From positions 1 to 64,000 of IMG/VR virus record IMGVR_UViG_3300021339_000006: 64,000 nucleotides of DNA. The stretch is one strand, 5' to 3'. Made by a program: the position numbers and the translations under genes. Below, piece after piece: positions 14,847 through 62,891 of the stretch; position 1 is the stretch's first letter; each line of letters starts with the position of its first letter. This DNA is from a virus. The notes below the pieces were generated by a model. The model saw only the letters and a list, made by a program, of their open reading frames with translations. It did not search any database and had not been told where the DNA came from.

Positions 14847-15181
14847 ATAAACGCAGTCAGCAACCACTCCGTCGCGCGCAGGTTTGGATTTTGATCGAAC
14901 CGACGTATCTCGTCCGACGCCACTTCCATCGGATCGTCAGGAATGTCCGATGGCATTTCGCCTAACATTAACCTGTCTCCGGCAGACATGATACGATCCA
15001 CATAAACCACAGCCTTGGATATTTGACGCTCTCCCTTGGAATCAAGGAACTCCTGCGCAGTGCCATCCCACCGACAATCAATCTCAACAGGTTCATCAAA
15101 GGAAAAAGTGCCATAGTGGTCAGCATCCAAACGCTTCCACCATATCGCCTTCTGCCTGCGCATCCTTCGAATCAAACTCAC
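14843..15181 (-). CDS. head closure (stopper) protein
   Basis: DHYG..F.EPVEIDCRW motif; GTGA-coupled start; neck synteny. Confidence 0.7.
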   Translation of the reverse strand: MSLIRRMRRQKAIWWKRLDADHYGTFSFDEPVEIDCRWDGTAQEFLDSKGERQISKAVVYVDRIMSAGDRLMLGEMPSDIPDDPMEVASDEIRRFDQNPNLRATEWLLTAFI

Positions 15182-15816
15182 GCTGCCACCTCCAGTTTCA
15201 AGTAATCGTGAAACGCTTGGAAGTCCATAAAAGGAAAACAAGTGAGACGTGAAGTTCCGTCTGTGACGTTTAACACCTCGACACCTGCTGGAAGCTCCTT
15301 CCGTATTGTGAGGAAGCCACGCATGAAACGCTCAAACGCTTTATCCTTGGTCAACGTGGTGTTGAACTTGTGCCAGTGGGATTCCTTCGCGGCTGAGTTG
15401 CACAAGTCGTAACCGAGCAGGAAGATACGCTGCGCGCCTAATGAGATCGCTAAGTTGATCGCCATTGCACCCGTTGAGTAGTTCCATCCGAGAGTGTCGC
15501 CATCGTGGAGACCGTCGCGCACGCGCTTCATCTTCAGTAACTGTGGCACGTCCCATCCTTCCAGCCCAGCGTTTGTTACAAGTCGGTTGGTAAATACTTC
15601 TTTGAGGTCTGGAAGTGCTTGGCGCATCCACCATGCCAGATCACCGAAGCATCCAATCTTTATGATGTCATTTCCGAGGCGGCAGGCGTCGTTGCATCCA
15701 ATTGTGTTCCTGCCACTGAGAAGCTGAAAATCAAAGCGGCGCAAAGAAGGGCCGCCTCCAATCAAGAAACAGTCCTGTCCATTCCACTCACGGTCCGGGA
15801 TCCAGTAAGCGTTCAT
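15178..15816 (-). CDS. MptE/Maf/sialyltransferase-like (DUF115-type) transferase
   Basis: LIGGGPSL, TIGCN, STG.MAINLAISLGAQRIFLLGYD, SHW motifs. Confidence 0.7.
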   Translation of the reverse strand: MNAYWIPDREWNGQDCFLIGGGPSLRRFDFQLLSGRNTIGCNDACRLGNDIIKIGCFGDLAWWMRQALPDLKEVFTNRLVTNAGLEGWDVPQLLKMKRVRDGLHDGDTLGWNYSTGAMAINLAISLGAQRIFLLGYDLCNSAAKESHWHKFNTTLTKDKAFERFMRGFLTIRKELPAGVEVLNVTDGTSRLTCFPFMDFQAFHDYLKLEVAA

Positions 15817-16696: not shown

Positions 16697-17761
16697 TCAG
16701 GGAGCCACGCCGTGGACAATACCAGTCTGTCCATCGTAGTCCGAGCGAAGCTGCGGAACCCAGATCGCCATCACTTTGAAATGCACGCGCATTCCGCCGT
16801 CCGTCTCCCACTGCAAGGTGGTGATGTCCATACCATTCACGAGCCGCGCCACGTCGCTCGTCATTTGCACGAGGATCATTTGGAAGCCAGTGAGGTAATC
16901 GACAGTTTGGATTTCCGACACGCCGTTGATCTGCATCAAACGCTGGCGGACGGAGTTGTCTCCCTTCTCGTCGCTGTAGTCATTGTCCAAGAACAAGTCC
17001 CAGTCCGGCGAGACGTAGAGCGTCCACGGGCCGAAGTAGTTATTGTTGGTGGACAACTGGCGCATCTCGAGCACCTCGTTGAGCAAGGTCTTCGGAGTCC
17101 AACCACTTGCTGTCGGATTCGTCAACACCTGAGTCAACCGCCCAATGTAATTGGTGAGGCCGTAAACAGTCCCGCCGCCGTAGCTGTATGTCCCAGCAGT
17201 GCCGAGGAACAGTTTCTCAGCCTCTTCCGTCACCTTGCGCGCAGCCAACTGCGCTGTCGTGGTGTCCACGCCCTGACCATTGTTGCGGGAGACCGCAATC
17301 TGGCGTGCGTTGAAGAAGAAGTCCTTGTGAATCACGGGCAACGGAAGGTTGATCGTGTCCGTCTCAGGGCGATCGCCTTCGCTCTTACGCGCCGGATCCA
17401 TGCTGATGGTCGCCGGTGTGATGTCGCCCATCCGATCCGACTCAAGCACTGTTTTACCCATGCCGTTGGGCACAGTGTAAACCAAGCCCTTGCTGCGGAA
17501 GTCCGAAATGATCCGGAGCCGTTCACGCGCAGCCATTGTCACTGCGTCGTCGATCTGTTTCCACTCGTCTTTGCGCAAAGTGGCGTTCCGAGTCAACACT
17601 GGTGTGGACACCAGCTTGTTGGTTCGGAGGTCCTTTGTGGCAATGTAGTGCCGCCCGTCATCCCCAACCCAGGGACGCAGTGTGGCAACGTCGAAGCCGT
17701 TGGTAAGGAGCGTCGAAGCGACGTTCCCTATGGCGCGGCCATTGTAAATGAAGTCTTTCAT
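16697..17761 (-). CDS. major capsid protein (HK97 fold, encapsulin/linocin-M18-like branch)
   Basis: 354 aa; LPLPVIHKDF...RQI, AARKV.E, YGLTN, GP..LYV motifs; after protease and decoration genes. Confidence 0.9.
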   Translation of the reverse strand: MKDFIYNGRAIGNVASTLLTNGFDVATLRPWVGDDGRHYIATKDLRTNKLVSTPVLTRNATLRKDEWKQIDDAVTMAARERLRIISDFRSKGLVYTVPNGMGKTVLESDRMGDITPATISMDPARKSEGDRPETDTINLPLPVIHKDFFFNARQIAVSRNNGQGVDTTTAQLAARKVTEEAEKLFLGTAGTYSYGGGTVYGLTNYIGRLTQVLTNPTASGWTPKTLLNEVLEMRQLSTNNNYFGPWTLYVSPDWDLFLDNDYSDEKGDNSVRQRLMQINGVSEIQTVDYLTGFQMILVQMTSDVARLVNGMDITTLQWETDGGMRVHFKVMAIWVPQLRSDYDGQTGIVHGVAP

Positions 17762-17796: not shown

Positions 17797-18231
17797 TCAC
17801 AAGATACGAACACGCACGCGAGTATCAACTTCCGCGGCGGAATCGCTCAAGTCCATTTCTTCGAGTGGAACGCCAATTCGCACGTCCGTCCCGCCAGCAA
17901 CCTTCAGCGTCCCATCACCATTGCTGGTGAGAAACTCATTAGGTGTGCAATGCTCGCCTGCCGCAAGGAAGGCAAACACAACGTCTCCAGACTTCTGGAC
18001 GCCGACGGCAACGAGTTCGCCGACTGCGTAATTGTCACTGATGCCGCGGCCCTGCAGCGCATCTTCCAGCGCAAAGGTTTTCTCCGCGTGCCCGCCTGCT
18101 GTGCCGTGCGGGATCAAATTCCCAGCACTGTTAAGCGCAACGAGCATACCCGGCGTGATGATGGCAGCCGCGCGCCCTTCTTCGTGGAACCCTTCTCCCT
18201 TGAGTTGGATTCGTGTTGGTCGTGTTTTCAT
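17797..18231 (-). CDS. head decoration / cement protein
   Basis: ITPGMLV, LTSNGDGTL; between protease and capsid. Confidence 0.75.
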   Translation of the reverse strand: MKTRPTRIQLKGEGFHEEGRAAAIITPGMLVALNSAGNLIPHGTAGGHAEKTFALEDALQGRGISDNYAVGELVAVGVQKSGDVVFAFLAAGEHCTPNEFLTSNGDGTLKVAGGTDVRIGVPLEEMDLSDSAAEVDTRVRVRIL

Positions 18232-18265: not shown

Positions 18266-19729
18266 TTAGGCGGCAGCCGTCTTCTTGTCAAAGTTCATCA
18301 CCGGAATTTCCAACGGCGCCTCACCAGAGGTCGTTGCGTTGCCGACCGGTGCCATTCCCGCATAGCTTGCCTGCGCAGTCTCAGAGGTCGCAGCCGACAA
18401 GCGGGCCAGTTTGCGCAGCTCACCAAGCGGCCGCGTGTTCAATTCTTCCTTCGCGAACTCGTTGCTCTCGTTGGCAAGGATAACATCGACCAGCTTGGTC
18501 TTTTCCTCGTTGAGAGACTGCATTGAGTTGCGCAACACTTCCCGCACTTCGGGCGGAGCATTGTCCACGTATTCCTGCACGTTGACAACCTTCGGAGGAG
18601 CCGAAGGTGTGACAGGAGGCGGAACCACCGGCGGCGCGGCCGGAGGTGTCACGGGAGGTGCAACAGGTGGAGGTGTTGCTGGCGGCGTGATGCCGTTCAC
18701 AACAATGTCCAACTGCTTATCGTTGTAAGCCATCAAAGCTGCGCGGTCGGTCTCTGCCCACCCCGCATTCGCTGCAATGATGCCGTCCACTTTTTCTTTT
18801 TGTGTCTTCATCGCGGTTGTTTCTGTTTCTTCTTCTGCGGGACGGTGGTTCCCAACAAAGGAACCATCAACCGTCCGGTATTCAGTGACTCGCTTTACCT
18901 TAACCGGCGTCTCGTCACTCAACGAAACGTCAGTGTCATTTGACATGTAACCGAGCCGCCAAAATTCATTCTCCTTCTCGTAAATAAAGAAGTTGGAGAA
19001 CACATCCACCACCCAAATGTAAGGGCCGTTCTCACCGACCTTGAGTTGGTCGCGCAGCTTTTGGGAAAGCGCGCTGTGGATGTTACTGTAAGACATTTCG
19101 TTGTCTGCCAGTCCCATCTTTGTCAGCAACTGATGGAAAGCCTGACCAACCGGCGATCGCTTATCCGCTGCTTGGTTGCGAAGGAAGCCGGCACCGTCAG
19201 CAATCGAACAAGCGCCGATCTGGTCAGGCAGTAACGCAAGATGGTCGGGCCGGTAGTTGCGCGCAACGAGGCTGTAATCCTCGGACTTCCATTTGCCCGT
19301 CGTGTTCTCTCCGTCGAAAAATAATCCAGTGGAAAGCTCCATCATCTCTTTCGCCTTCACTGCCTTAAGGATTCGATCGTCGATCAAATCGGCGCGGTCC
19401 TTTTCAATCCACGCCTCGCTGGTGAGTCTGTTGTTGGCGAACTTAGTGTTGAGCATCAAACCAACCTTGCGGTTGTTGATAACGTCGGGTTGGCACGCAC
19501 TGATCCCTTCGCCGTTCAGCGTCGGATGGTAAACCACCACTGGTTTGTGATTCCAAACCTCAGGTGTCTTTTCCAACTCGTCCTTTGGATAAAACACAGG
19601 GCCGGCCGATCCTGCATGGACGCCCTCAGTGAGGATAACCATCGGAACCACCACATGAGTGCGTCCTTCCAGCGTTTCCTCACGTGAATTTGCAGCCATT
19701 AAATTGAGTGTGATCTTTGAGTAAGTCAT
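18266..19729 (-). CDS. prohead protease/scaffold (DUF2213 family)
   Basis: WNHKPVVVYHP, ELSTG, PDHLALLP..GACS..DG motifs; Pro-rich scaffold C-terminus. Confidence 0.85.
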   Translation of the reverse strand: MTYSKITLNLMAANSREETLEGRTHVVVPMVILTEGVHAGSAGPVFYPKDELEKTPEVWNHKPVVVYHPTLNGEGISACQPDVINNRKVGLMLNTKFANNRLTSEAWIEKDRADLIDDRILKAVKAKEMMELSTGLFFDGENTTGKWKSEDYSLVARNYRPDHLALLPDQIGACSIADGAGFLRNQAADKRSPVGQAFHQLLTKMGLADNEMSYSNIHSALSQKLRDQLKVGENGPYIWVVDVFSNFFIYEKENEFWRLGYMSNDTDVSLSDETPVKVKRVTEYRTVDGSFVGNHRPAEEETETTAMKTQKEKVDGIIAANAGWAETDRAALMAYNDKQLDIVVNGITPPATPPPVAPPVTPPAAPPVVPPPVTPSAPPKVVNVQEYVDNAPPEVREVLRNSMQSLNEEKTKLVDVILANESNEFAKEELNTRPLGELRKLARLSAATSETAQASYAGMAPVGNATTSGEAPLEIPVMNFDKKTAAA

Positions 19730-19826: not shown

Positions 19827-20228
19827 TTAGTTTCCAGCTTCTTGTTTTTGCTGGGACTCGAGTAGGGCATCGGCCGGATTGGATGGAATGAACGGTCTCA
19901 GAAGGATGCAGTTGTTGAAAAGATTCTGCACCGTCTGCTCGGGATCGTCCGATATGAGAGCGCGTAGTTCCGAGGGTGTGATAGCGTTAGCAAAAGCATC
20001 CGTGAGAACCTTCAACGACTCTCCCACAAGTTGGTATTGCAAAACTGTTGTCCGCATTTGATCCACCAAGGCTGTTGTGCCAGACCGCTGGTGGCTTTGC
20101 ACCGTTGTGACAATGCGCCGCCATCGCCGCTCCACCTCCTCAGTTGGAATGCCCATCTTACAAGAGATGCGGGCGTTGGTCATTCCCATGGACTTGTATT
20201 TGACTATCAAGGCATCATCGGTGAGCAC
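19827..20228 (-). CDS. hypothetical protein with N-terminal HTH
   Basis: GMTNARISCKMGIPTEEVERRW HTH-like segment. Confidence 0.6.
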   Translation of the reverse strand: MLTDDALIVKYKSMGMTNARISCKMGIPTEEVERRWRRIVTTVQSHQRSGTTALVDQMRTTVLQYQLVGESLKVLTDAFANAITPSELRALISDDPEQTVQNLFNNCILLRPFIPSNPADALLESQQKQEAGN

Positions 20229-21043
20229 GCTGTCCTCCTTATTGAAATATAATCGAAAAGCACTTTGCGATTCTGACTGGACTGGATCGGATTCTTGTAA
20301 TCACCAAACGGTGCGGGATGCCAACGATGGAGCAAGCCTAGCCGATCGTTGAGTTCGATCAGCTCTCGCGCCTTGCGCCGACTGATTTCTTCCCGACACC
20401 TTTGCGTCACGTTGTCCATACGCAAGTCTCCGGGCAGTGGGTCGGCTTGCTGTTGGTGGTGCTCCAGCATGTAAATTTGCTGGTAATCCTCCCACCCGTG
20501 TCCTTTGAATTCAGAAACGCAGCCACCCAACTCGAGGTAATCCAAACGCCGACAAATGAAATTCGTGCCAGCTGGAAACGGGTAGCTCGATGGATGCTCG
20601 ATAAGGTGGTAATACTCCGACACGAGAATGGGCATCTTGCTTGGTGATAAGTTGGAAATCGACGTCCCCTGATCCATGTAATACATGCCACCATTGAACC
20701 ACTGCCGAGGCTGCGCCGTTTCCAGGATTGGGAGCAACTCTGTGAAATAGCGCGTGTGGGCAATGCAGTCCACGTCGAGCTTCATAATCCAATCAGATTT
20801 GGCAAGTGCCGCGCCCACGTTGTGGTAGTGACCGATCGAACGAGGTGCTCGATCGCTGCTCCTGCAATCCACAAATTGCAATGCCTCGCACTCATACTGG
20901 AGTGCCCACTCTGGAATCGTGCTAGGGGAAATGAGCATGTGACACACGCCTTGCGTAGGCGCGGCACAAACGGATTTCAACCACAAGGTCAGCATCTCCG
21001 GCCGATTCCAATAAGGTGTGATGGTGGTGAGGATTGGTTTCAT
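20207..21043 (-). CDS. GT-A glycosyltransferase (GT2/GT7-like)
   Basis: TITPYWNR, NVG, KLDVD (DxD), GG...F.GHGWED, HRWH. Confidence 0.85.
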   Translation of the reverse strand: MKPILTTITPYWNRPEMLTLWLKSVCAAPTQGVCHMLISPSTIPEWALQYECEALQFVDCRSSDRAPRSIGHYHNVGAALAKSDWIMKLDVDCIAHTRYFTELLPILETAQPRQWFNGGMYYMDQGTSISNLSPSKMPILVSEYYHLIEHPSSYPFPAGTNFICRRLDYLELGGCVSEFKGHGWEDYQQIYMLEHHQQQADPLPGDLRMDNVTQRCREEISRRKARELIELNDRLGLLHRWHPAPFGDYKNPIQSSQNRKVLFDYISIRRTACSPMMP

Positions 21044-21213
21044 TCTGCTTTTGCGTTTCTTAGGATCTTGTCTGGATTGGCGCCTTTGAGTTTTAGTAGC
21101 ACCCGCAGAATACGATTCTCATCACGTGCGGCATCATTCTTCTTTTGGGTAATAATGTCAGCCTTGCGCTCGGTAATGACTCCAAGTTTCGGTCTTCCAA
21201 CGCGCGCTTTCAT
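21040..21213 (-). CDS. small basic protein (57 aa)
   Basis: Manually translated MKARVGRPKLG...RNAKAE; ATGA overlaps at both ends. Confidence 0.6.
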   Translation of the reverse strand: MKARVGRPKLGVITERKADIITQKKNDAARDENRILRVLLKLKGANPDKILRNAKAE

Positions 21214-21845
21214 TTCCGAGAATAGTATCTGTCGCCCCAGCCTTGTTTCATCATCTTTGTTTCTTTGGGAAACAACTGAAACTTGGCAAGGTGGTCGTCG
21301 ATCTCTGGCGTGAGTGGACAGTCCTTGTAAAGGTGCTTCTCATTCACCTCAATGTAGGCGTGATCAAACTTCCAAAGCAGATCGCCCATCCCGCGCAACG
21401 CCATCAGCTCTGCTCCCTGCAAGTCCGCATTGAGAAACCATCCCGGCCCTACAATGTCTTTCAACGCCCAACAGTGCAACAGGGTATCCAACCGAATCGT
21501 TCGCATTGGGTGATCCTTAATGAACTTGGTGGTTGGGTGTTCCTTCGCGTGCGTGTCAAACGCCAAGAAGCTGGAACTTTGTGACTCGTTGTTGGCTTCA
21601 TGAAACATTACCTGCTCCCCGTCGTGCTCACCCAAGCACGCACAGATTGCGAAGTTGCCTGGAAACGTTGCCAGCTTGCGCACCAGCTGCTGGTGTATAT
21701 GGGGCAATGCTTCCACCCATATCACCTTCCGAATGCCCAGGGCGGCATACGCCTGCGCTTCCTGCCCGAGATTAGCACCAAGGTGGAGGACGCCAGGTGT
21801 TTGAATGTTGTGGCGTTTGAAGAGTTCATCGAAGGGGATTAGCAT
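21210..21845 (-). CDS. FkbM-family methyltransferase
   Basis: GVLHLGANLGQE, WVEA, SSS, RLD, DLQGAEL, EVN, WGD motifs. Confidence 0.9.
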   Translation of the reverse strand: MLIPFDELFKRHNIQTPGVLHLGANLGQEAQAYAALGIRKVIWVEALPHIHQQLVRKLATFPGNFAICACLGEHDGEQVMFHEANNESQSSSFLAFDTHAKEHPTTKFIKDHPMRTIRLDTLLHCWALKDIVGPGWFLNADLQGAELMALRGMGDLLWKFDHAYIEVNEKHLYKDCPLTPEIDDHLAKFQLFPKETKMMKQGWGDRYYSRK

Positions 21846-21846
21846 A

Positions 21847-22515
21847 TCAGGTTACGATTAAGGGTTTGTAAATTTGCTCGAACACCTCCACTCGACGTTC
21901 CCAAGTGTGCTGTCCTGCAAAGTGAATAGTTGGCATTCCTTTTCGCCACAGGATGCCGTCATGCCACATCTCAGGGCAAAAGCATCCGATCTCTTCTGCG
22001 CTTGCTGCGTAGATGCCCTTGAAGGCAGTCTCTCGAATGATCTCATCCATATACCATTGCTCCCAAGGAGGATAGGTAACGATCACGCGCTTCTTAGGTT
22101 CGATGCGCAGCGTTCCAATGGTGCAGCGCTCATGCCACTCATCGACAAAATCCATGGCATCCGCTGTCCTCTTCCACACCGTCAATCCAGCGCAGATGTA
22201 TTTCCAGAGCTTCCAGTTGGCTTGGTGGTAACCTGCCATGAAAATGTCCTTTTTGAGGAGGTCAGCCAAGTCCACTCTAAAGTCCATAAACGCCACATCA
22301 GCGTCTGCCCACACAATCTCTTTATATCCAGCCAACATCGCTTCCCGAATGACGTGAACTTTGGTAAAGCTGGGATGCAGGTCTGGCCAAAACTTCTCAC
22401 TTGTCTGCAAGTAGTCGTATCCACGTGCCTCCGCATACAGCCTGTGGTTCTCGAGGAACGGCTGGCAGAGGGAAGCGATCTCTGGCGTTGCGACAGTGAG
22501 TAGGGCTTTCTTCAT
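21847..22515 (-). CDS. glycosyltransferase, GT34/GMA12-MNN10-like
   Basis: YA..RGYDY, F.K, WADAD, AG, WEQ, IHFAG motifs. Confidence 0.75.
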   Translation of the reverse strand: MKKALLTVATPEIASLCQPFLENHRLYAEARGYDYLQTSEKFWPDLHPSFTKVHVIREAMLAGYKEIVWADADVAFMDFRVDLADLLKKDIFMAGYHQANWKLWKYICAGLTVWKRTADAMDFVDEWHERCTIGTLRIEPKKRVIVTYPPWEQWYMDEIIRETAFKGIYAASAEEIGCFCPEMWHDGILWRKGMPTIHFAGQHTWERRVEVFEQIYKPLIVT

Positions 22516-23072
22516 GGCTTTTGTATCCACCAGCTTGGGTAGTCCGTCTCCTGCGTCACGTTCACTTTCAGCCCGTGCGTCGCAGCAAACGTATCCACCG
22601 CAGTCTTGACGCCGTAATCACCGGACTCAATCACGCCATCCAAGTAGTCATGCCCTGCCAAGATTCCATGCCGACGCACCTTGGGCCACCACAACGCCAC
22701 GTCCTCTGTAGCTGCCGCAAGCGTATGGTTAGCGTCGATGTAGGCAAAGTCCAGGAAGTCGTCGCTAAAGTGCGGCGCAGCTTGCGCAGAGGTCATCCGC
22801 ATTGGAATGGCACGCTTCCTGTAGTCGCGCGCCCGCGTCAAGATGCGTTGATAGCGGGCTTCCTGGTCATTGTCCCCATGCACGCTGTAGCCTGGCACAT
22901 CGAGGATCTTCCAAGGATCAATCTGCCAGCATGTCAACCCTAGAATTCTATCTAGAAGATCGAAGCTGAAGTAACCCTCCGCCACTCCAACTTCCACGGC
23001 ATAGTTGACCAGACCTAAGTCCTTCAACGCACCTGCAAAGTCTTTCCTCGTTCTCATCAATGTCCTCACCAT
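22512..23072 (-). CDS. class I SAM methyltransferase (Methyltransf_24-like)
   Basis: VEVGV.EG, IDPW, DFAYIDANH, GILAGHDY, GV..AV motifs. Confidence 0.9.
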   Translation of the reverse strand: MVRTLMRTRKDFAGALKDLGLVNYAVEVGVAEGYFSFDLLDRILGLTCWQIDPWKILDVPGYSVHGDNDQEARYQRILTRARDYRKRAIPMRMTSAQAAPHFSDDFLDFAYIDANHTLAAATEDVALWWPKVRRHGILAGHDYLDGVIESGDYGVKTAVDTFAATHGLKVNVTQETDYPSWWIQKP

Positions 23073-23791
23073 TGCCTCCGTATCTTTTTAGTTGGTATCG
23101 GTCTTTCCCAAACACGCTCCCCAGTCCACTCCGGAACCTTCCCCACGTATTGGATATCCTGCGCAGTCGAAATGTAGGCAGCCTGCGAACCACCGCGCTC
23201 ACTGAGGCGGCCAGGCAGCGGGCGGTTATACCAGTAGAAAGGCTTGAAGCGTTCGGCGATCCCAACAGAAGTAACGCCTTCCTTTTTCAATCTCCGATCC
23301 AGCTCTTGATCGTCCCCTGCGTATTGCGGGCGGTAACCTCCACAGCGTTCCACTAACGTCCTACGAAATCCCCAACAGCCATGGTAGGCAAAACGATCTG
23401 TGTGACGCCAATGGAATGTATCGCTCTGCACCCATTCACCATCAACGTGATCTATGGCAACACGTGGCTGAACAAATTGGCTACCTTGCAACGCGTCAAC
23501 AATGGACTCCAGCCACCAAGGCATGTAAATATCATCGTCGTCTGCCTTCGCCAGCGCGTCACTGTCAAAGGAAGCCATTGCGATGGCTGCATTGTTCTTC
23601 TCCCCGAGCGAACGAAACCGACGAGGAACAGACACCACATGCCACCTGTCACCCGACTGGTTTTCATACTGTCCAGAATCATCGAGGATAACCAACTCCC
23701 TATTCTCATAGGTTTGGTTTTCAAAGCATTTGATCATCCGCCCTAATAGCTCTGGGCGATTCAACGTCGGACAAAATGCGGTGATTTTCAT
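23066..23791 (-). CDS. GT2 glycosyltransferase
   Basis: CPTLNRP, ELVILDD, LGEKNN, DDDD, GGY..GDD motifs. Confidence 0.85.
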   Translation of the reverse strand: MKITAFCPTLNRPELLGRMIKCFENQTYENRELVILDDSGQYENQSGDRWHVVSVPRRFRSLGEKNNAAIAMASFDSDALAKADDDDIYMPWWLESIVDALQGSQFVQPRVAIDHVDGEWVQSDTFHWRHTDRFAYHGCWGFRRTLVERCGGYRPQYAGDDQELDRRLKKEGVTSVGIAERFKPFYWYNRPLPGRLSERGGSQAAYISTAQDIQYVGKVPEWTGERVWERPIPTKKIRRQW

Positions 23792-24531
23792 TTCAGGCGT
23801 TCCCACTCTACGGGAACGATGTCTTTTACATCAAGCCCATTCCACCCAGGCACAAACCAAGGCGTTGGCATCACCACACGCTTCATCGGATTCTGATTTA
23901 ACCATGCAGCCCACCACGAGAACGTGCTGGCAGAACAAATTTGATTCCAACACCAACTCATCTCGACCAAGTCTTCCAGCTCATTATTTCCTTCCGAGAA
24001 CGTGCAATCGTCCCTGTGCCCGAACGTCTCTTTGCACCACGAAATATCGTCACTGAAGAATCGAAAGTTCTCACCAGGAAAGGTAGCCATTGCACGCTCG
24101 ATCCATTGCACAGGAACTGGTGGATGCTTCCGTGTCCAGCGCAAGTAATCACCGCGCCGAACGTGGACGGCTGTGCCAGAATGTGGAAACCAAGGAAAGT
24201 CGAACAGGTTGCGGATATTCCACTCCCACTTTTTGAAATACTTCTCCGACTGCCAGTAACCGTTGAGCAGAATGTTCTGCTCCCGCCACTCCTCCTTAAA
24301 GGGCCGCTCGTGATGGCAGAACACCGGCTCCTCAATCGTTACTGACGGCAGGTTCGGATTGAAGTTTGGGTTGACAAGGTGCTGGAGATAGACGGGACTC
24401 CACTTGGGATCCCTCGACTCTGCCAACGTTGGCATGGTGAACTCAAGTTGGTGGTCCAGTGCGTAGCTGATTGCGCCTGCTGCTTGGAACAAGAAATTGC
24501 CCAAGCGTCCGTAGGTTAGGGGCTTGACCAT
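23788..24531 (-). CDS. GT11 alpha-1,2-fucosyltransferase-like
   Basis: GRLGNFLFQ, GYWQSEKYF, HVRRGDY, FSDD, STFSWWAAWL motifs. Confidence 0.92.
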   Translation of the reverse strand: MVKPLTYGRLGNFLFQAAGAISYALDHQLEFTMPTLAESRDPKWSPVYLQHLVNPNFNPNLPSVTIEEPVFCHHERPFKEEWREQNILLNGYWQSEKYFKKWEWNIRNLFDFPWFPHSGTAVHVRRGDYLRWTRKHPPVPVQWIERAMATFPGENFRFFSDDISWCKETFGHRDDCTFSEGNNELEDLVEMSWCWNQICSASTFSWWAAWLNQNPMKRVVMPTPWFVPGWNGLDVKDIVPVEWERLK

Positions 24532-24532
24532 G

Positions 24533-25168
24533 CTAGATAAGGAGTTTGTAGTATTCGCCTTCTTTGAACTTTGTGCCAAGTGTAATGGATTCCTGCGCGC
24601 TCTCCTCGTGGTAACGGGCAAGTGGAAGGATCCGAAAGTCCATGCTTACACGCGCCGCATTGGTGCAGTTGCGATGATTTCCGTGCGTGAGAACGTTGCC
24701 ATCGAACGCAATCAACTCCCCTACGCGCATACGCATAGGCTCAAAGTCCTGCTTCCCTGGTTCCGATTCAACCCACACGCTGGCTGATCCGTCGGAATTG
24801 GTTAGTGGGATGATGTAGTTCTTCTCGCCCTTAGGGTGCCCGAACGCAGCATCATTGTGGAAGGCGCCGACAGCAACATTGCCTGGAAGGTGGATGCGGA
24901 AAGTAGGAAACCGCTGATAGAGGATTCGCATCGGATACGTGGGCGCGACTACCGACCGAACAAAGTCCTCGTAGGTATTCACCATCTCCGGCCACCCAGC
25001 ACGATACTTGTCATAAAAACGTTTGTGGAAAGATGTGGAAGAGTCAGCGCCTACTTTGAACAAATGCTCGTGGTGTTCCTGCAAAGAGGAGAGGTCTTTG
25101 GTTTCAAACAAAGCCTCCAACAGTCCAACAAAATCAAAGCCTGAGTAGGGTGTAGTCGTGTATCTCAT
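24533..25168 (-). CDS. 2OG-Fe(II) dioxygenase, StrG-like
   Basis: YQ..PTFR.HLP, FHND (HxD), HGN..N, RVSMDFR motifs. Confidence 0.75.
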   Translation of the reverse strand: MRYTTTPYSGFDFVGLLEALFETKDLSSLQEHHEHLFKVGADSSTSFHKRFYDKYRAGWPEMVNTYEDFVRSVVAPTYPMRILYQRFPTFRIHLPGNVAVGAFHNDAAFGHPKGEKNYIIPLTNSDGSASVWVESEPGKQDFEPMRMRVGELIAFDGNVLTHGNHRNCTNAARVSMDFRILPLARYHEESAQESITLGTKFKEGEYYKLLI

Positions 25169-26086
25169 TTATTTCTTCTTCTTCGGTTCTGGTGTTAAGC
25201 CAGCAAGGGCAGGAAGCCAAGCACACCGACAATTGGGATGGAGAGGAATGATCCCTCTCGCCTCGTCCACAGTTAGGATTTCCCCTGCACGCGCTGAGCA
25301 TTGTTCACACACCCTATCATCTCCAGCTGTTGACCATTCCACCTGCAAGCCCAGCTCATCCACGCCAAGCTTCTCGTAGGCATCCAGCTGCCCTTCCGAA
25401 TGGGCATTTATGATCTCTGTCCGCGCGATCATTAGCGCACGCGCGTAGGACAAGGAATCAATCTTGTCGGTCATTGCCCTTGCTATGGCAGTCGCCCCTA
25501 GTCCGTCCACCATGCCCTGGGCGAGGATTGTGTTGAGCTGAGCGCCCATTGTAGCAGTGACGCCACGCAGCTCCTCGTAGGTGCGCATTCCAAGCAAGCG
25601 CACTTTGCTCATTGCTTCTGGCTGGTTGAAGGAGTCAGCGAGGAATTTGGATTCGGTTATGTCCTCCTCCAGCAAGTCCGCCCTGCGTGAGGCTAGGTAG
25701 GCGTTGATGTGCCCCTTCTTGTAAGCCGATTCGATATACTCCGTCGTCCAAGGTTCGTCTGCATTTGCGCCTGGTGGGAGGGAAAAGATGTCCGCCTCTA
25801 CTTGCTGCCGGAACCAATCGTTGAACGCTTTGAGCTTCCCAGCATCGGTTCGGAATTCATATTCGCGGCGCTGTGCGAGGATGGCGAGACCAAGCTTCTT
25901 CTCCTTCAGTCCCAATGCGTCCAGCTCTACAATGAACTCTCGGACATGCGCCTTGAGCTTTCGGAAACGTCGCAGGAGATCTTGCTCAAACTTGCGCCGA
26001 ATCATCAACGTCCTCGTGGGATCCATCCTCAATGGATTCTTTCGCACGTTGAACGTTGGCTTTTGGTTGGTGGTGCAACAGGACAT
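25169..26086 (-). CDS. head morphogenesis protein (SPP1 gp7 / Mu gpF family)
   Basis: IARTE, WSTAGDDRVC..C, IPLHPNCRC motifs. Confidence 0.92.
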   Translation of the reverse strand: MSCCTTNQKPTFNVRKNPLRMDPTRTLMIRRKFEQDLLRRFRKLKAHVREFIVELDALGLKEKKLGLAILAQRREYEFRTDAGKLKAFNDWFRQQVEADIFSLPPGANADEPWTTEYIESAYKKGHINAYLASRRADLLEEDITESKFLADSFNQPEAMSKVRLLGMRTYEELRGVTATMGAQLNTILAQGMVDGLGATAIARAMTDKIDSLSYARALMIARTEIINAHSEGQLDAYEKLGVDELGLQVEWSTAGDDRVCEQCSARAGEILTVDEARGIIPLHPNCRCAWLPALAGLTPEPKKKK

Positions 26087-26094
26087 AAAAATTT

Positions 26095-26129
26095 GCCTCG
26101 GCTGGCCAAAGGATGAAACCAGCCGAGGC
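26095..26129 (-). terminator. hairpin, possible terminator or processing site
   Basis: Perfect 11-bp inverted repeat GCCTCGGCTGG/CCAGCCGAGGC followed by AAATTTTT. Confidence 0.55.
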
Positions 26130-26141
26130 GCGCGGCGGAGA

Positions 26142-26570
26142 TTAACCGCGTGATTTGCGAGACGGAGCCGGAGGAGGTGTCTCCTCATCCTCTTCGTCGC
26201 CTTCTTCTTCGTCATCGGCTGGGATCAGCTCGTCCTGAGACTCCGGCGCCTCAGCAACTTCCACGGTGGTGGCATCTTTGTGCGCCACTGTGTAACCAAT
26301 CTCCACAACCAGCGGAGTCACGTCTGGACCGACGTGAGCGTCAACCTGAACGCTGACAACCTTGTCGCCAAGCGCGCCGTCACCGTTGACATAAATGACA
26401 ATCTCCTTCTGGCTTGAGTCAGGTGAAATTGTGGGCGCGGACGAATCGCCTTCCACAACTGCACCGACAGCAAACGCGCCACTGTCCAGCACGTCCACTG
26501 CCTCATCAGGCGTCAATGTCAGTTTGCGCCGGTAGCCTGGCTTGATGGACTTCTTGAGTTGAACTCTCAT
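26142..26570 (-). CDS. beta-rich (Ig-like?) protein with acidic tail
   Basis: Val-rich alternating strands; ATGA-coupled start; Asp/Glu tail. Confidence 0.6.
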   Translation of the reverse strand: MRVQLKKSIKPGYRRKLTLTPDEAVDVLDSGAFAVGAVVEGDSSAPTISPDSSQKEIVIYVNGDGALGDKVVSVQVDAHVGPDVTPLVVEIGYTVAHKDATTVEVAEAPESQDELIPADDEEEGDEEDEETPPPAPSRKSRG

Positions 26571-26734
26571 TTCTCTTCCTTCTTTGGTATTGGTTCGTCT
26601 CCGCCGTCTTCCACAAGGATTACGAACGGGACGCGCCTTGGTTTTGGTTTTGTCTTGCATGATAGCAGGGTCATGGCCGCCAACACGACGGCACCCGCAG
26701 TCAACGCGAAGCTGATTATCAAAGCTGTTTTCAT
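26567..26734 (-). CDS. small predicted lipoprotein (55 aa)
   Basis: Manually translated MKTALIISFALTAGAVVLAAMTLLS-C...KKEEK; ATGA overlaps at both ends. Confidence 0.65.
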   Translation of the reverse strand: MKTALIISFALTAGAVVLAAMTLLSCKTKPKPRRVPFVILVEDGGDEPIPKKEEK

Positions 26735-28194
26735 GGGCGCAATGGGACGGTTGGTTTCACTGTCGGGCGGCCGCGTTTTGTCTCACCGTTCTTTTCTCCC
26801 TCCTCCTCTTCATCCTCCTCCGGTTCCTCAAGAGCACGCTCCTCTTCCTCGAGTTGGACTTCCTCCATGCGTTCGCTGGCTGCATCAATGACAGCTTTGG
26901 CTTCATCGTCTTCCATTCCGAGGATCAGTGTGAGGTAATGGAACGGCGGGATCAAAAGATCGACGCCACCCATCGCATACTTTGCCAGCGCAGTAGTCTT
27001 CATCGACGCCACCTCTGCCTTCTCCTTGTCGCTGGGCGTATTGAGGTCGGGCCAGTGAACCTGAATCTCCTTGGGCTTGGACAGCGCGCCGAATGCAATC
27101 AGCCGTTCTACTGTTGGCAGGATTACAAAAGGCGTGACGTATTCCTTGCGCCTGCGCGTGAGGCGTTTGATCCAAGCGCGGGCGTCCTGTTCGGATGCTA
27201 GTTGCGCAGCTTCTGACCCGATAAAAACGCGCCATGGGACTCCTAGGGCGGCAGCAATCAGCTTTATTTGAACCTCTACATGCGAGCCAGGGTCGGCTAC
27301 TTGTGGCGTCAAGCTTTTTGCAGACATGCCCTGGAGCGCAATGTAACGCTGGAGCCCTTCCATGTAGGCTTCCAACTGTTTCTTTGTGCCCTCCTCGTCG
27401 ATCTCAACGTCCTCCCCAGGCAGCGTTTCCAAGGACAGTCCTGGGAAGCCTCCCTTCCAAAACATCTCGCCACTGCCACCTGAGATCTTCTTCAAGTCCA
27501 GCAGTCGATTGTAAACCTTCTCCATCCGAGGCAGCCCGTAAACATCACTGGACATTCGGTTGTCTGCGAGGTGGATGATGCGCGACCAGTGAACCTTGTT
27601 GGAAGCGACGGCATTGGCTGTTCCCTGCACGTCCTGAAACTGGATGTTGTAAAGGACTGGAAGACCGTAGCGCGGGTTGGAGGTGTTGGTTTCGAAGGCG
27701 TCAATGCGAACCACCTGTTCATCGAAAGGTCGCACGTAAAGCAGCTCAAGCTTGGCATTGGCGTTGGTGATGATGTCACCCTTCTCTGTGATCCCTGGCG
27801 CAGGTTCGCTCAACGCCTTGCCGTCACTCAAGCCCAACAGCACCACACCGAACCTGCCGATCCCACTGAGAGTGTCCGCGCGCTGCAAGACAGAGAACAG
27901 CCTGTGTTTCTTTTCCAGCTCAATGAACTCTTTCTCAAAAGGAGTTTCGGTTTGCTTCTCTGTCTCGAAGACTTCTGGATTCTCCGCCCACGTCTCCTCC
28001 GGCCACACAGAAACAACACGTGACGCAATGTCTCCGCGCAGGAACGCCTTCTTGCAATCCTCAGTGGTGACCTCAGATGGGTGCCCACATTCCTGGTCGA
28101 TGTCGCGCATACTGTCGAGCTGCCGGCGCAGCCACAATTGGCGTTCGAGGAGGATGTTTTGAACTATCGCGGCATTGACAGCGAGTTTACTCAT
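26731..28194 (-). CDS. portal protein (DUF1073 family)
   Basis: IGRFGV, PRYGLP..Y, VHWSRIIH, GVPWRVFIG, ASEQD...W motifs; 487 aa. Confidence 0.9.
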   Translation of the reverse strand: MSKLAVNAAIVQNILLERQLWLRRQLDSMRDIDQECGHPSEVTTEDCKKAFLRGDIASRVVSVWPEETWAENPEVFETEKQTETPFEKEFIELEKKHRLFSVLQRADTLSGIGRFGVVLLGLSDGKALSEPAPGITEKGDIITNANAKLELLYVRPFDEQVVRIDAFETNTSNPRYGLPVLYNIQFQDVQGTANAVASNKVHWSRIIHLADNRMSSDVYGLPRMEKVYNRLLDLKKISGGSGEMFWKGGFPGLSLETLPGEDVEIDEEGTKKQLEAYMEGLQRYIALQGMSAKSLTPQVADPGSHVEVQIKLIAAALGVPWRVFIGSEAAQLASEQDARAWIKRLTRRRKEYVTPFVILPTVERLIAFGALSKPKEIQVHWPDLNTPSDKEKAEVASMKTTALAKYAMGGVDLLIPPFHYLTLILGMEDDEAKAVIDAASERMEEVQLEEEERALEEPEEDEEEEGEKNGETKRGRPTVKPTVPLRP

Positions 28195-39370: not shown

Positions 39371-40015
39371 TTACTTAGCGTAAGGCACAGGGTCAACCAT
39401 CCCTGCTATTGCGAATGCTTTCTTCCGAGGAACACAGCTTGCGCACTCCCCACAATGCGTCTCTCCACTCAAGTAACACGACCAAGTCAATTCCATTGGG
39501 ACGTTGAGCTTTTTCCCAGCCTTCACCACCTCCCATTTGTCCAAGTAATTGATAGGCATCAAAATCTGTGGACACTCTAATCCACAAGCGAATGGAAGTA
39601 GATTGTTAAATGCCTGAGTGAACTCTGGATAGTTGTCTGGATTTCCACCATGCGCAATGTTCCCATGTCCAATGTAAGGGATCCCATTTGTCATGCAGTA
39701 TCCAGCGGCCAACGAGATCAGGATCAGGTTGCGTGCGTTCACTCTCGACACTGCCCCGGAGAGTTCCTTGGCGGGCCGCCTTCCCTGGATCAATCCCGAC
39801 GTGACCACACCTCCAATTGCCACCTCAGCAATGTGGTGAGGCATTCCCATTGCTTTGGCGCAATCCTTGAGCGCCTTGTGCTCTTTCCACGTTGCACGGC
39901 ATCCATAGTCGATCATCAACAGCTCGACTTGGAAACCCTCATCTTTAAGGACTGCCGCAGCAACCACGCTGTCGAGTCCTCCACTGCAAAGAACTGCCAC
40001 TTTGTTTGATTTCAT
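39371..40015 (-). CDS. queC: 7-cyano-7-deazaguanine synthase
   Basis: SGGLDS, DYG, RN.I.IS, PD..PEF, TWSCY, HCGECASC motifs. Confidence 0.95.
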   Translation of the reverse strand: MKSNKVAVLCSGGLDSVVAAAVLKDEGFQVELLMIDYGCRATWKEHKALKDCAKAMGMPHHIAEVAIGGVVTSGLIQGRRPAKELSGAVSRVNARNLILISLAAGYCMTNGIPYIGHGNIAHGGNPDNYPEFTQAFNNLLPFACGLECPQILMPINYLDKWEVVKAGKKLNVPMELTWSCYLSGETHCGECASCVPRKKAFAIAGMVDPVPYAK

Positions 40016-61035: not shown

Positions 61036-61241
61036 TGCTGTAGGTGCTCCTTTGCTTGCGCAACCACGCACCCGTGCTTGTGTCGAACTTGAGGAGGTGT
61101 CTTGCCAGTGTCATTGCAGTGGACACAATACCACTCAACCGAAAGGATTGTGTCCAACATAGACATCCCTCTGCGTGCTGGACGCTCCTTGATAGCAAGG
61201 TCAACCATCTCACTTAAAAGCTGCTTGGTGCTTTTACTCAT
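61032..61241 (-). CDS. small Zn-finger-like protein
   Basis: CVHC...H..GC; coupled between folE and dpdA. Confidence 0.65.
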   Translation of the reverse strand: MSKSTKQLLSEMVDLAIKERPARRGMSMLDTILSVEWYCVHCNDTGKTPPQVRHKHGCVVAQAKEHLQQ

Positions 61242-61827
61242 TGTTGGACTTTGCCAATTCGATCAGCTTGTAGAATTCAGCACGCACCTCTGCCTTCAAA
61301 AACGTGCCGCGCAACTGGGAGGTGACCATTACCGCTTTTTGTTTCTGCACGCCTCGGCACGCCATGCATTGGTGCTTTGCCTGAATCACAACACCAACAC
61401 CGGCCGGCTTGAGATGCTTCGACATTGCGTCCGCAATCTCCACTGTCATCTTTTCCTGAATCTGCAACCGCCGCGCAAAGCAATCCACCAAACGCGCCAT
61501 CTTGGACAGTCCCACCACACGTGACTTCCTCTTCGATGGCAGATAGGCAATGTGCGCGTAGCCAACAAACGGAAGCAGATGGTGCTCGCATACAGAACTG
61601 AATTCGATCCACGAGCAGTTAATCATTTGATCGTAACGGCCCGCAGCGAAATCACGCTCCAGTATTTCCTCTGGACGCTGGCAGTAGCCTAGCGTCATCT
61701 CGTCCCATGCACGCACCACCCTGTCGGGCGTGTCCTGGAGGCCGTCCCTGTCAACGTCCTCACCGACATAGCTGAGCAAGGTGCGAATCGCCTCTCGCGC
61801 CATCACTTCTGTTGCCTGTTCCTTCAT
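61234..61827 (-). CDS. folE: GTP cyclohydrolase I
   Basis: GL.DTP.RV, CEHHLLPF.G, GLSK, RLQ.QE, H.CM..RG motifs. Confidence 0.97.
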   Translation of the reverse strand: MKEQATEVMAREAIRTLLSYVGEDVDRDGLQDTPDRVVRAWDEMTLGYCQRPEEILERDFAAGRYDQMINCSWIEFSSVCEHHLLPFVGYAHIAYLPSKRKSRVVGLSKMARLVDCFARRLQIQEKMTVEIADAMSKHLKPAGVGVVIQAKHQCMACRGVQKQKAVMVTSQLRGTFLKAEVRAEFYKLIELAKSNNE

Positions 61828-62529
61828 TCAATAGCCTTTTGCTGGATCGCCTCCCAATGGGACTGGCGTCCTGCTCCTACTATCTGCGAGGTCCACGGCA
61901 TACAACTTGTGAAGCTGCCATCCAGCGCGCAGTGGCTGCCCTCGATAGCACTGCACCACAGCCTCGGAGATCGCGTTCAGCACTGCCGGATTCTTCCGCT
62001 GACTCCACTCTGGGTGCAACCAAACCGAATTGGGAATCGGATCAGTCCCGAACGCCTCCTCCAACGCCTTCAGGTAGAAATCAATGTCTGCTGGCGTTTC
62101 GATGATCAGCTTGAACTCATCTGCCTGCTGGATGTTCTCAACCAATGGCATTTTCCACTTCTTGGGTGAGAGGGTTATGAAATCGAAATGACCCTTCATC
62201 GGAAACGATCCACTCGTCTCCAAATGAACCTGCATGAAAGAGGTGCGCAGTTCGTGCGTCAATTCTGTGAGGTCATGAACAGTCGGCTCGCCTCCAGTAA
62301 TGACAACAAAATCAACGATGGGATCCGCGCACGCCTCGACACGAATCTCCTCTGCCGACATGCGCTTGATGTCCTTGGGCACATGGTCTGGATGCCAAGT
62401 GCCTGCGCTGTCGCACCAAGGGCATTGCACTGGGCAGCCGAATGTCCTCAGGAAATAGGCTGGGCGTCCCATGTGGGTGCCCTCACCTTGGAACGTCCTG
62501 AATCGCTCGTGTATTGGATACAACTTCAT
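61828..62529 (-). CDS. queE: 7-carboxy-7-deazaguanine synthase (radical SAM)
   Basis: F.T.QGEG, CPVQCPWCD, TGGEP, ETSG, SPK, QLHK motifs. Confidence 0.95.
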   Translation of the reverse strand: MKLYPIHERFRTFQGEGTHMGRPAYFLRTFGCPVQCPWCDSAGTWHPDHVPKDIKRMSAEEIRVEACADPIVDFVVITGGEPTVHDLTELTHELRTSFMQVHLETSGSFPMKGHFDFITLSPKKWKMPLVENIQQADEFKLIIETPADIDFYLKALEEAFGTDPIPNSVWLHPEWSQRKNPAVLNAISEAVVQCYRGQPLRAGWQLHKLYAVDLADSRSRTPVPLGGDPAKGY

Positions 62530-62891
62530 GGTTGGTAAATGCAAGACGAGGTGCAAGTTTCGTCAATCTCGATGGCAACGAGGCTGGGCAAGCTGTCCTT
62601 GAGTCGCTCGTAAATCCAACGCGCTAATTCCTCGCTGGTTGGATTCTCAAGGCCAGTGGTCTCGTTGAGATAGTGGTGATCCAACCTCTCCTCAACAAAC
62701 GACTTCACCTCCTTGGAGATGGTGCCGAAGTCCATCAGCATTCCCTGCTTCGGCCCATAGAAGATAAGCTTCTCACCCTGCACCACAACGCGCATCACCC
62801 ACGAGTGTCCGTGCAATCGTTGGCACTTTCCATCATGGTGAGGCAGCTTGTGGGCTGCCTCGAATTTGAATTCCTTTTTGAGTGTAAACAT
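62526..62891 (-). CDS. queD: 6-carboxytetrahydropterin synthase
   Basis: FEAAH.L, C..LHGHS, DH..LN, NPTSE, ET motifs. Confidence 0.95.
   Translation of the reverse strand: MFTLKKEFKFEAAHKLPHHDGKCQRLHGHSWVMRVVVQGEKLIFYGPKQGMLMDFGTISKEVKSFVEERLDHHYLNETTGLENPTSEELARWIYERLKDSLPSLVAIEIDETCTSSCIYQP

Follow-up and report, generated by a model that had tools for sequence, protein, structure and literature searches.

What could a set of sugar-handling enzymes be doing in the middle of the genes that build a phage head? The question is raised by the window analysed here, a stretch of 64 kb that makes up the first part of a 76.8-kb virus record (IMG/VR record IMGVR_UViG_3300021339_000006) rated complete by CheckV. 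In it, an island of eight open reading frames (ORFs), seven for enzymes and one for a 57-amino-acid (aa) product, lies between a Mu-F-like head-morphogenesis gene and a gene for a DUF2213 prohead protease. The family assignments and structural models described below support well the view that this island encodes a multi-enzyme kit for glycan synthesis and tailoring. As to the acceptor of the glycan, its position in a presumably late operon and the precedent of other viruses make virion proteins our best guess, to which we give a probability of roughly one half. A search of sequencing runs found the stretch solely in soil metagenomes, all of them DNA runs and one of them possibly the source sample, and listed no RNA sequencing run containing it.

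A coupled run of seven enzyme genes among the head genes

An earlier note, made from the letters of this DNA alone, had described a tightly coupled gene run between the head-morphogenesis gene and the prohead protease gene, and this description held for all eight ORFs, which occupy 20207-25168 on the minus strand. The six enzymes of its heading have to be raised to seven, in agreement with the tally that the note itself gave in brackets, namely four glycosyltransferases, two methyltransferases, and one oxygenase. The upstream flank is formed by the Mu-F-like gene (25169-26215, minus strand; PF04233, E 5e-16; phrog_758, E 3e-37) and the downstream flank by the gene for the DUF2213 prohead protease/scaffold-like protein (18266-19729, minus strand; PF09979, phrog_760, and phrog_530).

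The junction between the Mu-F stop codon and the start codon of the first island gene, ORF1, reads TAAATG, and the ORF1 stop and the start of the following GT11 gene are 1 nucleotide (nt) apart (TAGCATG). ATGA overlaps join GT11 to GT2, the Methyltransf_24 gene to the GT34-like gene, the FkbM gene to the 57-aa ORF, and the latter to the GT2-like gene; the GT2/Methyltransf_24 overlap is ATGGTGA, and the GT34-like stop and FkbM start are again separated by 1 nt. Coupling thus runs from Mu-F through the last transferase gene without visible interruption. The promoter-like and terminator-like sites found at 16-29 kb did not exceed the count in shuffled sequence. No membrane-spanning segment was detected in any island protein, none of which has a hydrophobic stretch above 1.6 on the Kyte-Doolittle scale.

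Relatives were collected by a search with the portal protein, which retrieved 184 related IMG/VR stretches with up to 64% identity, and the window proteins were mapped on 80 loci. For all island enzymes, the catalytic motif residues were kept in every relative checked; the motifs, whose degeneration the earlier note had named as a sign against its proposal, were hence found intact.

Four predicted glycosyltransferases

The 247-aa product of 23788-24531 (minus strand), the true start of which is the ATG at 24531 rather than the TTG at 24621, was assigned to family GT11 as an alpha-1,2-fucosyltransferase-like enzyme. It matched PF01531 (E 3.2e-20; 73 bits against a cut-off of 23.9), the alignment covering profile positions 167-275 only, and phrog_2644 over its full length (E 1e-39). 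It contains the motifs GRLGN and HVRRGDY (residues 123-129), the latter kept in 16 true GT11 relatives, and thus combines the two features that define GT11 in CAZy, a profile score above threshold and the HxRRGDY donor-binding motif. Its identity to cyanophage GT11 homologues is 32-37%, and sequence searches of solved structures gave no match.

The neighbouring gene (23066-23791, minus strand) encodes a 241-aa GT2 protein (PF00535, E 1.1e-11), predicted to be an inverting enzyme of the GT-A type, in which LDD and DDDD motifs are invariant across all six relatives compared (70-76% identical). The last transferase gene of the island (20207-21043, minus strand) likewise encodes a GT2-like GT-A glycosyltransferase, of 278 aa, which matched PF10111 (E 1.2e-7; 32 bits against a cut-off of 27.3) and in which D90 and D92 of a DVD motif and G183-W-E-D-Y187 are invariant (12 of 12 relatives). 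Its best profile match in the PDB was the chondroitin synthase K4CP, a weak one (E 0.005), and a single-sequence search of solved structures gave no match.

The fourth transferase, a 222-aa protein (21847-22515, minus strand), fell below the Pfam cut-offs (PF05637, 21.1 bits against 23; PF03314 (DUF273), 22.2 against 30) and had no match in sequence searches of solved structures; several of its homologues bear precomputed PF05637 or PF03407 assignments. An AlphaFold2 model built from 29 homologues, with a predicted local distance difference test (pLDDT) score of 96, found as its best Foldseek match the capsid-glycan transferase A64R of the chlorovirus PBCV-1 (2P6W; E 8.5e-12, TM scores 0.68/0.73); the next best was XXT1, a xylosyltransferase of family GT34 (6BSU; E 1.6e-10). 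Considering that the modelled GT-A fold with its DxD motif (D71-A-D73, invariant in the 29 homologues) is closest to GT34 structures, we regard this protein as a putative retaining glycosyltransferase of the GT34 type.

Two predicted methyltransferases and two small genes

The 186-aa product of 22512-23072 (minus strand) is a predicted class I S-adenosylmethionine (SAM)-dependent methyltransferase of the O-methyltransferase-like Methyltransf_24 family, with an above-threshold match to PF13578 (E 1.7e-14); its ExGxAxG motif, D113..H116, and H141-D142 are kept in 15 of 15 relatives. The second methyltransferase, of 211 aa (21210-21845, minus strand), belongs by its profile matches to the FkbM family (PF05050, E 1.4e-11, 45.3 bits against a cut-off of 22.7; TIGR01444, E 7.5e-12, 45.9 bits against 37.7), the motifs of which are kept in all 13 relatives compared.

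The 57-aa ORF at 21040-21213 (minus strand), which is basic, is an orphan of uncertain coding status: it gave no family match, and no homologue was found in related loci even at relaxed E-values. The gene for a 133-aa protein (19827-20228, minus strand), the last one before the protease gene, starts with GTG behind an AGGAGG ribosome-binding site placed within the 3' end of the last transferase gene. Its homologues occur in eight loci, including two that lack the island (L029 and L031), and in these two the gene keeps its place before the protease gene even though the transferases have been lost. The protein possibly has an N-terminal helix-turn-helix; the Atlas clusters HTH_23, Terminase_5, and Sigma70_r4, scored at 0.91, are taken here as a lead only.

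ORF1 is probably a sugar-tailoring oxygenase

ORF1 (24533-25168, minus strand), of 211 aa, was without a Pfam match at E 0.01, and sequence searches of solved structures likewise gave no match. Its AlphaFold2 model (mean pLDDT 91.5) resembles the PhyH-type 2-oxoglutarate (2OG)-Fe(II) oxygenases PtlH, SptF, AviO1, EvdMO1, and KanJ (Foldseek E ~1e-6), with a probability of 1.00 to PtlH, SptF, AviO1, KanJ, and PHYHD1, and in 36 homologues the iron-binding triad H104-x-D106...H162 and the 2OG-binding R173 are invariant. The double-stranded beta-helix fold, the HxD...H triad, and the Arg residue by which 2OG-Fe(II) oxygenases are recognised are thus all present. The label "StrG-like", which the earlier note had attached to this gene, is supported by a score of 0.96 for the "StrG" cluster of the ESM Atlas.

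Several observations connect this oxygenase with carbohydrates. A weak match to TIGR04324, "sporadic carbohydrate cluster 2OG-Fe(II) oxygenase", was obtained (27 bits against a cut-off of 150). The closest cellular homologue, from Micromonospora (37% identity), is encoded in a polysaccharide cluster next to genes for an ABC-transporter ATPase, a GT4 enzyme, a WbsX-type transferase, and a methyltransferase. In viral proteins of the ESM Atlas, furthermore, the ORF1 fold (TM 0.95 over the query) is fused to DegT/DnrJ/EryC1 sugar aminotransferases, and the sugar-tailoring oxygenases AviO1, EvdMO1, and KanJ are among its nearest folds. The family, which has no Pfam model, thus seems to have its place in sugar pathways of viruses, and from the TIGR04324 match, the Micromonospora neighbourhood, and the DegT fusions ORF1 is probably a sugar-tailoring oxygenase.

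The fusion proteins are 641-731 aa long, and those of giant viruses have GNAT domains as well.

It had also been proposed that ORF1 primes glycosylation by hydroxylating a protein. The sugar-pathway associations of the oxygenase family, namely the Micromonospora cluster, the DegT fusions, and the nearest folds, led us to reject this role; since a free-proline hydroxylase is among the fold matches, the rejection is not a strict one.

The island is a conserved trait of one phage clade

The portal tree comprised 36 informative loci, 20 of which form the clade to which the island belongs (support 100/100) and 16 its sister clade. Island genes stand between Mu-F and DUF2213 in 17 of the 20 loci; 12 of these have at least three island genes, and the other five lie on contigs that end in or near the island. 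Retention of the set at this frequency rules out chance. Wherever a GT2, FkbM, or GT11 match occurs in the five island-bearing genomes that are near-complete, it lies in this slot. The synteny that the earlier note had proposed to look for in related phages is therefore real within this clade, with the qualification that gene order is shuffled, ORF1 being found behind FkbM in some relatives.

The content of the slot also varies. The islands of relatives hold additional genes for second GT2 and FkbM copies, a GT25 enzyme, an NAD-dependent epimerase/dehydratase, and MazG, and in one of them (L003:13549-15099) a 516-aa ORF consists of a GT2 domain fused to a GT11 domain, by which the two activities are linked. 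Locus L026 keeps, of the island, the GT2-like gene alone, together with other methyltransferases, and the transferases are lost in one sub-branch, that of L029 and L031.

In the sister clade no island genes occur in the slot, which is nearly empty (237-1000 bp) or filled with other cargo. In two of its loci (L055:10462-12335 and L056:3533-5409) the slot carries genes for GDP-mannose 4,6-dehydratase (Gmd; PF16363, E 1e-121) and an Fcl-like epimerase, a pair that by its family assignment is a supply module of the GDP-fucose type without transferases and that fits the GT11 enzyme of the island. Other sister-clade cargo includes a metallophosphoesterase, other methyltransferases, and a pilin-like gene, and some genomes of this clade have Gmd, FkbM, or GT2 genes at other positions. 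MazG, a calcineurin-like phosphoesterase, Methyltransf_23 enzymes, and a protein with a pilin-type N-methylation motif were found as slot cargo in L010, L012, L026, L029, L058, and L077. The interval from Mu-F to DUF2213 is accordingly a hot spot for cargo.

A megablast search with 9 kb of the region gave no match in GenBank phages, and none of 50,697 deposited phages matched the portal better than the haloarchaeal virus Halorubrum phage Hardycor1, at only 33%, so that no cultured relative or host can be assigned. The RecA and Pol III clamp-loader genes, which are of bacterial type, point to a bacterial host.

Neighbouring genes of the virion module

The portal gene (26731-28194) and an unassigned 172-aa gene between it and Mu-F (26142-26660) lie on the upstream side of the island. 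On the downstream side, the DUF2213 gene is followed by those for a decoration protein (17797-18231; phrog_766) and an HK97-type major capsid protein (16697-17761; PF19774, phrog_771), and further by neck genes, a tape-measure gene, and a gene for a J-like tail-tip protein; the four genes given with coordinates are on the minus strand.

Outside the island, the neck module contains a 212-aa gene (15178-15816, minus strand) for a Maf/GT42-like transferase. Its match to PF01973 (E 4.6e-5) is below the cut-off, a profile of 20 homologues matches CstII sialyltransferases (E 4e-4), and GGGxS, D137, and H149 are invariant. On these grounds it is a candidate protein-directed sugar transferase. The gene is kept in all relatives, both with and without the island, and is therefore regarded as a core gene of the phage group.

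A second, divergent Maf-like paralogue (24% identity) was seen in an island-free relative (L114:11388-12044; G007:C1:59388-60044); it lies in a variable region distant from the head module, with a GT2 gene some 1.5 kb away.

Proposed pathway and its acceptor

From the predicted activities, the island may be pictured as a cytoplasmic kit that would be transcribed late in infection in one run with the head genes. Of the four soluble glycosyltransferases, two or three would be inverting (GT2, the PF10111-type GT2-like enzyme, and GT11) and one, of the GT34 type, retaining; together they would build a chain of three or four sugars at the least. The sugars would come from host nucleotide sugars; the window's own genome has neither Gmd nor an epimerase for nucleotide-sugar synthesis, which implies dependence on the host pools. 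The chain would probably include a 6-deoxyhexose of the GDP-fucose type, and a fucose-type or other 6-deoxyhexose is indeed plausible in view of the HVRRGDY motif of GT11 and the Gmd and Fcl-like genes in the sister-clade slot. The Methyltransf_24 and FkbM enzymes would then O-methylate sugars at the expense of SAM, and the PhyH/StrG-type oxygenase would oxidise or hydroxylate a sugar. What the sequences show directly is which enzymes are encoded, that their motifs are intact, that the genes are coupled, and that the island is kept in this slot across the clade; the kinds of sugar, the order of the steps, and the co-expression late in infection are inferred.

The most conjectural element is the acceptor. 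We propose that the glycan is placed on at least one virion protein, so that the particle would be coated with sugar like those of the mycobacteriophages Che8 and Corndog and the capsids of chloroviruses. The presumed late read-through with head genes, the lack of an integrase or resolvase in the genome, the lack of lipid-carrier parts among the ORFs scanned, the retention of the set within the head module, and the Maf/GT42-like gene of the neck module all favour a virion target, at the even odds stated at the outset.

Several observations weigh against this choice of acceptor. Compared with the sister clade, the island clade has no insertions or C-terminal tails of its own in the capsid and decoration proteins, and no length differences in the neck and tail proteins. 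Both clades keep the C-terminus of the capsid protein, whether the island is present or not, which leaves internal sites as possible places of attachment; the numbers of clade-specific Ser/Thr columns are equal, with one in the capsid and one in the decoration protein of each clade, and Ser/Thr-rich tracts were not found in the structural proteins. The position of the island in a cargo hot spot may reflect tolerance of insertion and not function. In unrelated large phages, combinations of GT11, methyltransferase, and oxygenase genes adjoin PhoH and ribonucleotide reductase genes. Precedent from sequence is thin as well: by tblastn, the GT34-like, GT2, and GT2-like proteins and ORF1 had no match in 50,697 GenBank phage records, GT11 matched only cyanophages and uncultured phages, its homologues in cultured phages being cyanophage genes throughout, and none of the island proteins had a detectable mycobacteriophage homologue. 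Hence, of the methylated, possibly fucosylated virion glycan that the earlier note had envisaged, the kit of four glycosyltransferases, two methyltransferases, and an oxygenase stood and fucose stayed plausible, and the attachment to virion proteins found no acceptor signature to confirm it.

Comparison with known virion glycosylation systems

In cluster O mycobacteriophages, an O-methyltransferase and three glycosyltransferases modify the capsid and the tail tube, according to PMC11600133, citing Freeman 2023; PMC12619734, citing the same work, places the glycans towards the C-termini of the capsid and tail-tube subunits. These cassettes of the Corndog type, also known from Che8 and Myrna, resemble the present island in placing soluble glycosyltransferases and an O-methyltransferase among siphophage structural genes; the genes studied here sit between Mu-F and DUF2213, with the portal gene upstream and the capsid gene downstream. 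In contrast to the cassettes, they form a larger set (four transferases and two methyltransferases) to which a 2OG oxygenase is added, and are accompanied by a capsid protein that lacks a C-terminal acceptor tail. They also belong to an uncultured soil lineage in which glycosylation is predicted from the genes.

The capsid protein of PBCV-1 is glycosylated by virus-encoded enzymes, with a glycosyltransferase-glycosyltransferase-methyltransferase protein, A064R, that comprises two rhamnosyltransferase domains and a methyltransferase, and with galactose, xylose, and fucose transferases in A111/114R (PMC7826918). The likeness lies in the combination of cytoplasmic virus-encoded transferases with a methyltransferase and in the product, the PBCV-1 glycan being methylated, rich in 6-deoxyhexoses, and fucose-containing; domain 1 of A64R is the nearest solved fold of the island GT34-like protein, and relatives of the present phage carry Gmd and Fcl-like genes. 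Unlike the island proteins, the PBCV-1 enzymes are multidomain and belong to a giant virus of eukaryotes, and with 17-19% identity the correspondence is a match at the level of the fold. Because A64R acts on a glycan acceptor, this match is uninformative as to a protein acceptor. The island may thus be regarded as functionally like the mycobacteriophage and chlorovirus systems, by analogy, without being a member of either by homology.

Alternative targets

The alternative that survives best places the glycan on the host envelope. Soluble transferases would remodel host polysaccharide of the undecaprenyl-linked or ABC-transporter pathway at the inner face of the membrane, and the O-antigen, capsule, or wall glycans altered in this way would, for example, exclude competing phages or stop progeny from sticking to debris; we consider this unlikely. 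The missing transmembrane segments are not contrary to it, as the cytoplasmic transferases of O-antigen and capsule synthesis are soluble too. The Micromonospora homologue of the oxygenase, in its cluster with the ABC-transporter ATPase, GT4, WbsX, and methyltransferase genes, is in line with it, and so is the other accessory cargo of the Mu-F/protease slot. The nearest parallel is found in the "cell wall synthesis and modification" clusters of cyanophages, whose GT11, GT25, and GT2 genes are usually taken as modifiers of the host surface (PMC12801897), a point that also counts against the virion. These clusters have a homologous GT11 (32-37%), a similar mix of families, and a GT25 enzyme as in the islands of our relatives; their genes are located in the auxiliary-gene regions of cyanomyoviruses, whereas the present ones lie between Mu-F and the protease, and the cyanophage function is likewise a predicted one.

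Set against this are four points. With no integrase or resolvase, lysogenic conversion does not come into question, and the island is not a seroconversion module expressed in lysogeny. Because the genes are coupled to late head genes, a product would have only a short time in which to be exported. A scan that covered the ORFs of the island and of 20 relatives, rather than the whole genome, showed no initiating phosphoglycosyltransferase, flippase, polymerase, or GtrA/B. Finally, every glycan gene found in the island clade is inside the head module.

It is less probable still that the kit has another target or product, whether by glycosylating a host protein or a phage protein outside the virion, or by making a methylated oligosaccharide, free or bound to lipid, that serves in signalling, as a decoy, or in protection from stress, with the slot being merely permissive. 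The unrelated cargo of the hot spot, the lack of an acceptor signature in virion proteins, and the glycan genes at other positions in sister-clade genomes would all accord with such a target. No precedent for it was found in the literature, however, the full set is retained across the clade inside the late operon, and the second, Maf/GT42-like transferase of the neck module points to the particle.

The last alternative, raised in the earlier note as oxidation of DNA bases followed by their glycosylation, supposes that the oxygenase and/or a methyltransferase hydroxylates a base and that the transferases build a glycan on the DNA before packaging, perhaps on top of a 7-deazaguanine. In known phage DNA-glycan pathways the transferase stands beside a C5-methyltransferase and a TET-like oxygenase, or beside a thymidylate-synthase homologue (bioRxiv 10.1101/2023.12.21.572611; PMC13326640), and the group is transferred to the DNA late, before packaging (PMC13326640). 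The combination of a methyltransferase, a 2OG oxygenase, and GT-A transferases superficially resembles the C5-MT/5mYOX/GT clusters (bioRxiv 10.1101/2023.12.21.572611). A 7-deazaguanine pathway is plausible in this genome from its predicted enzymes, QueC (39371-40015), GTP cyclohydrolase I (FolE; 61234-61827), and a QueE-like radical-SAM enzyme (61828-62556), all encoded on the minus strand; DpdA was not found with the Pfam TGT model, which it may escape.

The resemblance ends there, as the oxygenase has a PhyH/StrG-type fold, with no TET/JBP protein among the listed Foldseek matches, and belongs to a family linked to sugar pathways. A search of the window's genome with Pfam Tet_JBP gave no match, but its control was silent too. 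The methyltransferases are O-methyltransferase-like (PF13578) and FkbM (PF05050) enzymes rather than C5-cytosine methyltransferases, no ThyA homologue (PF00303) is present in the genome, and the island is not beside DNA-metabolism genes, whereas the known clusters keep the base-hydroxylating enzyme beside the transferase (bioRxiv 10.1101/2023.12.21.572611). As QueC is missing in four of the five near-complete island-bearing relatives, there is no fixed link between the island and the deazaguanine pathway. Given the lack of ThyA, the PhyH-type fold, and the absence of QueC from most of these relatives, modification of DNA is very improbable.

Implications

The glycosylated virion being the preferred reading, a more specific picture can be offered tentatively, in which this clade of soil siphophages coats its own particle with an O-methylated, oxidised 6-deoxyhexose oligosaccharide by means of a seven-enzyme kit that is unrelated in sequence to that of mycobacteriophages and convergent with that of chloroviruses, and in which the Maf/GT42-like enzyme might attach the first or the capping sugar to the protein.

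In the literature found, virion glycosylation by phage-encoded enzymes is reported solely for mycobacteriophages, in which it reportedly dampens the response of neutralising antibodies. If our proposal is true, the island would represent the most complex phage-encoded pathway for a virion glycan known and the first outside actinobacteriophages. It also supplies compact, soluble, and probably cooperating enzymes that lend themselves to expression and direct assay, comprising GT11, GT34-type, and two GT2-type transferases, two sugar methyltransferases, and a sugar-pathway 2OG oxygenase from a family without a Pfam model. The presence of a conserved seven-enzyme kit among the head genes of a large clade of uncultured soil phages would suggest that phage particles with a sugar coat are commoner, and their chemistry richer, than has been supposed, with a bearing on the stability and adhesion of particles in soil, on the evasion of recognition by hosts or predators, and on the engineered display of glycans on phages.

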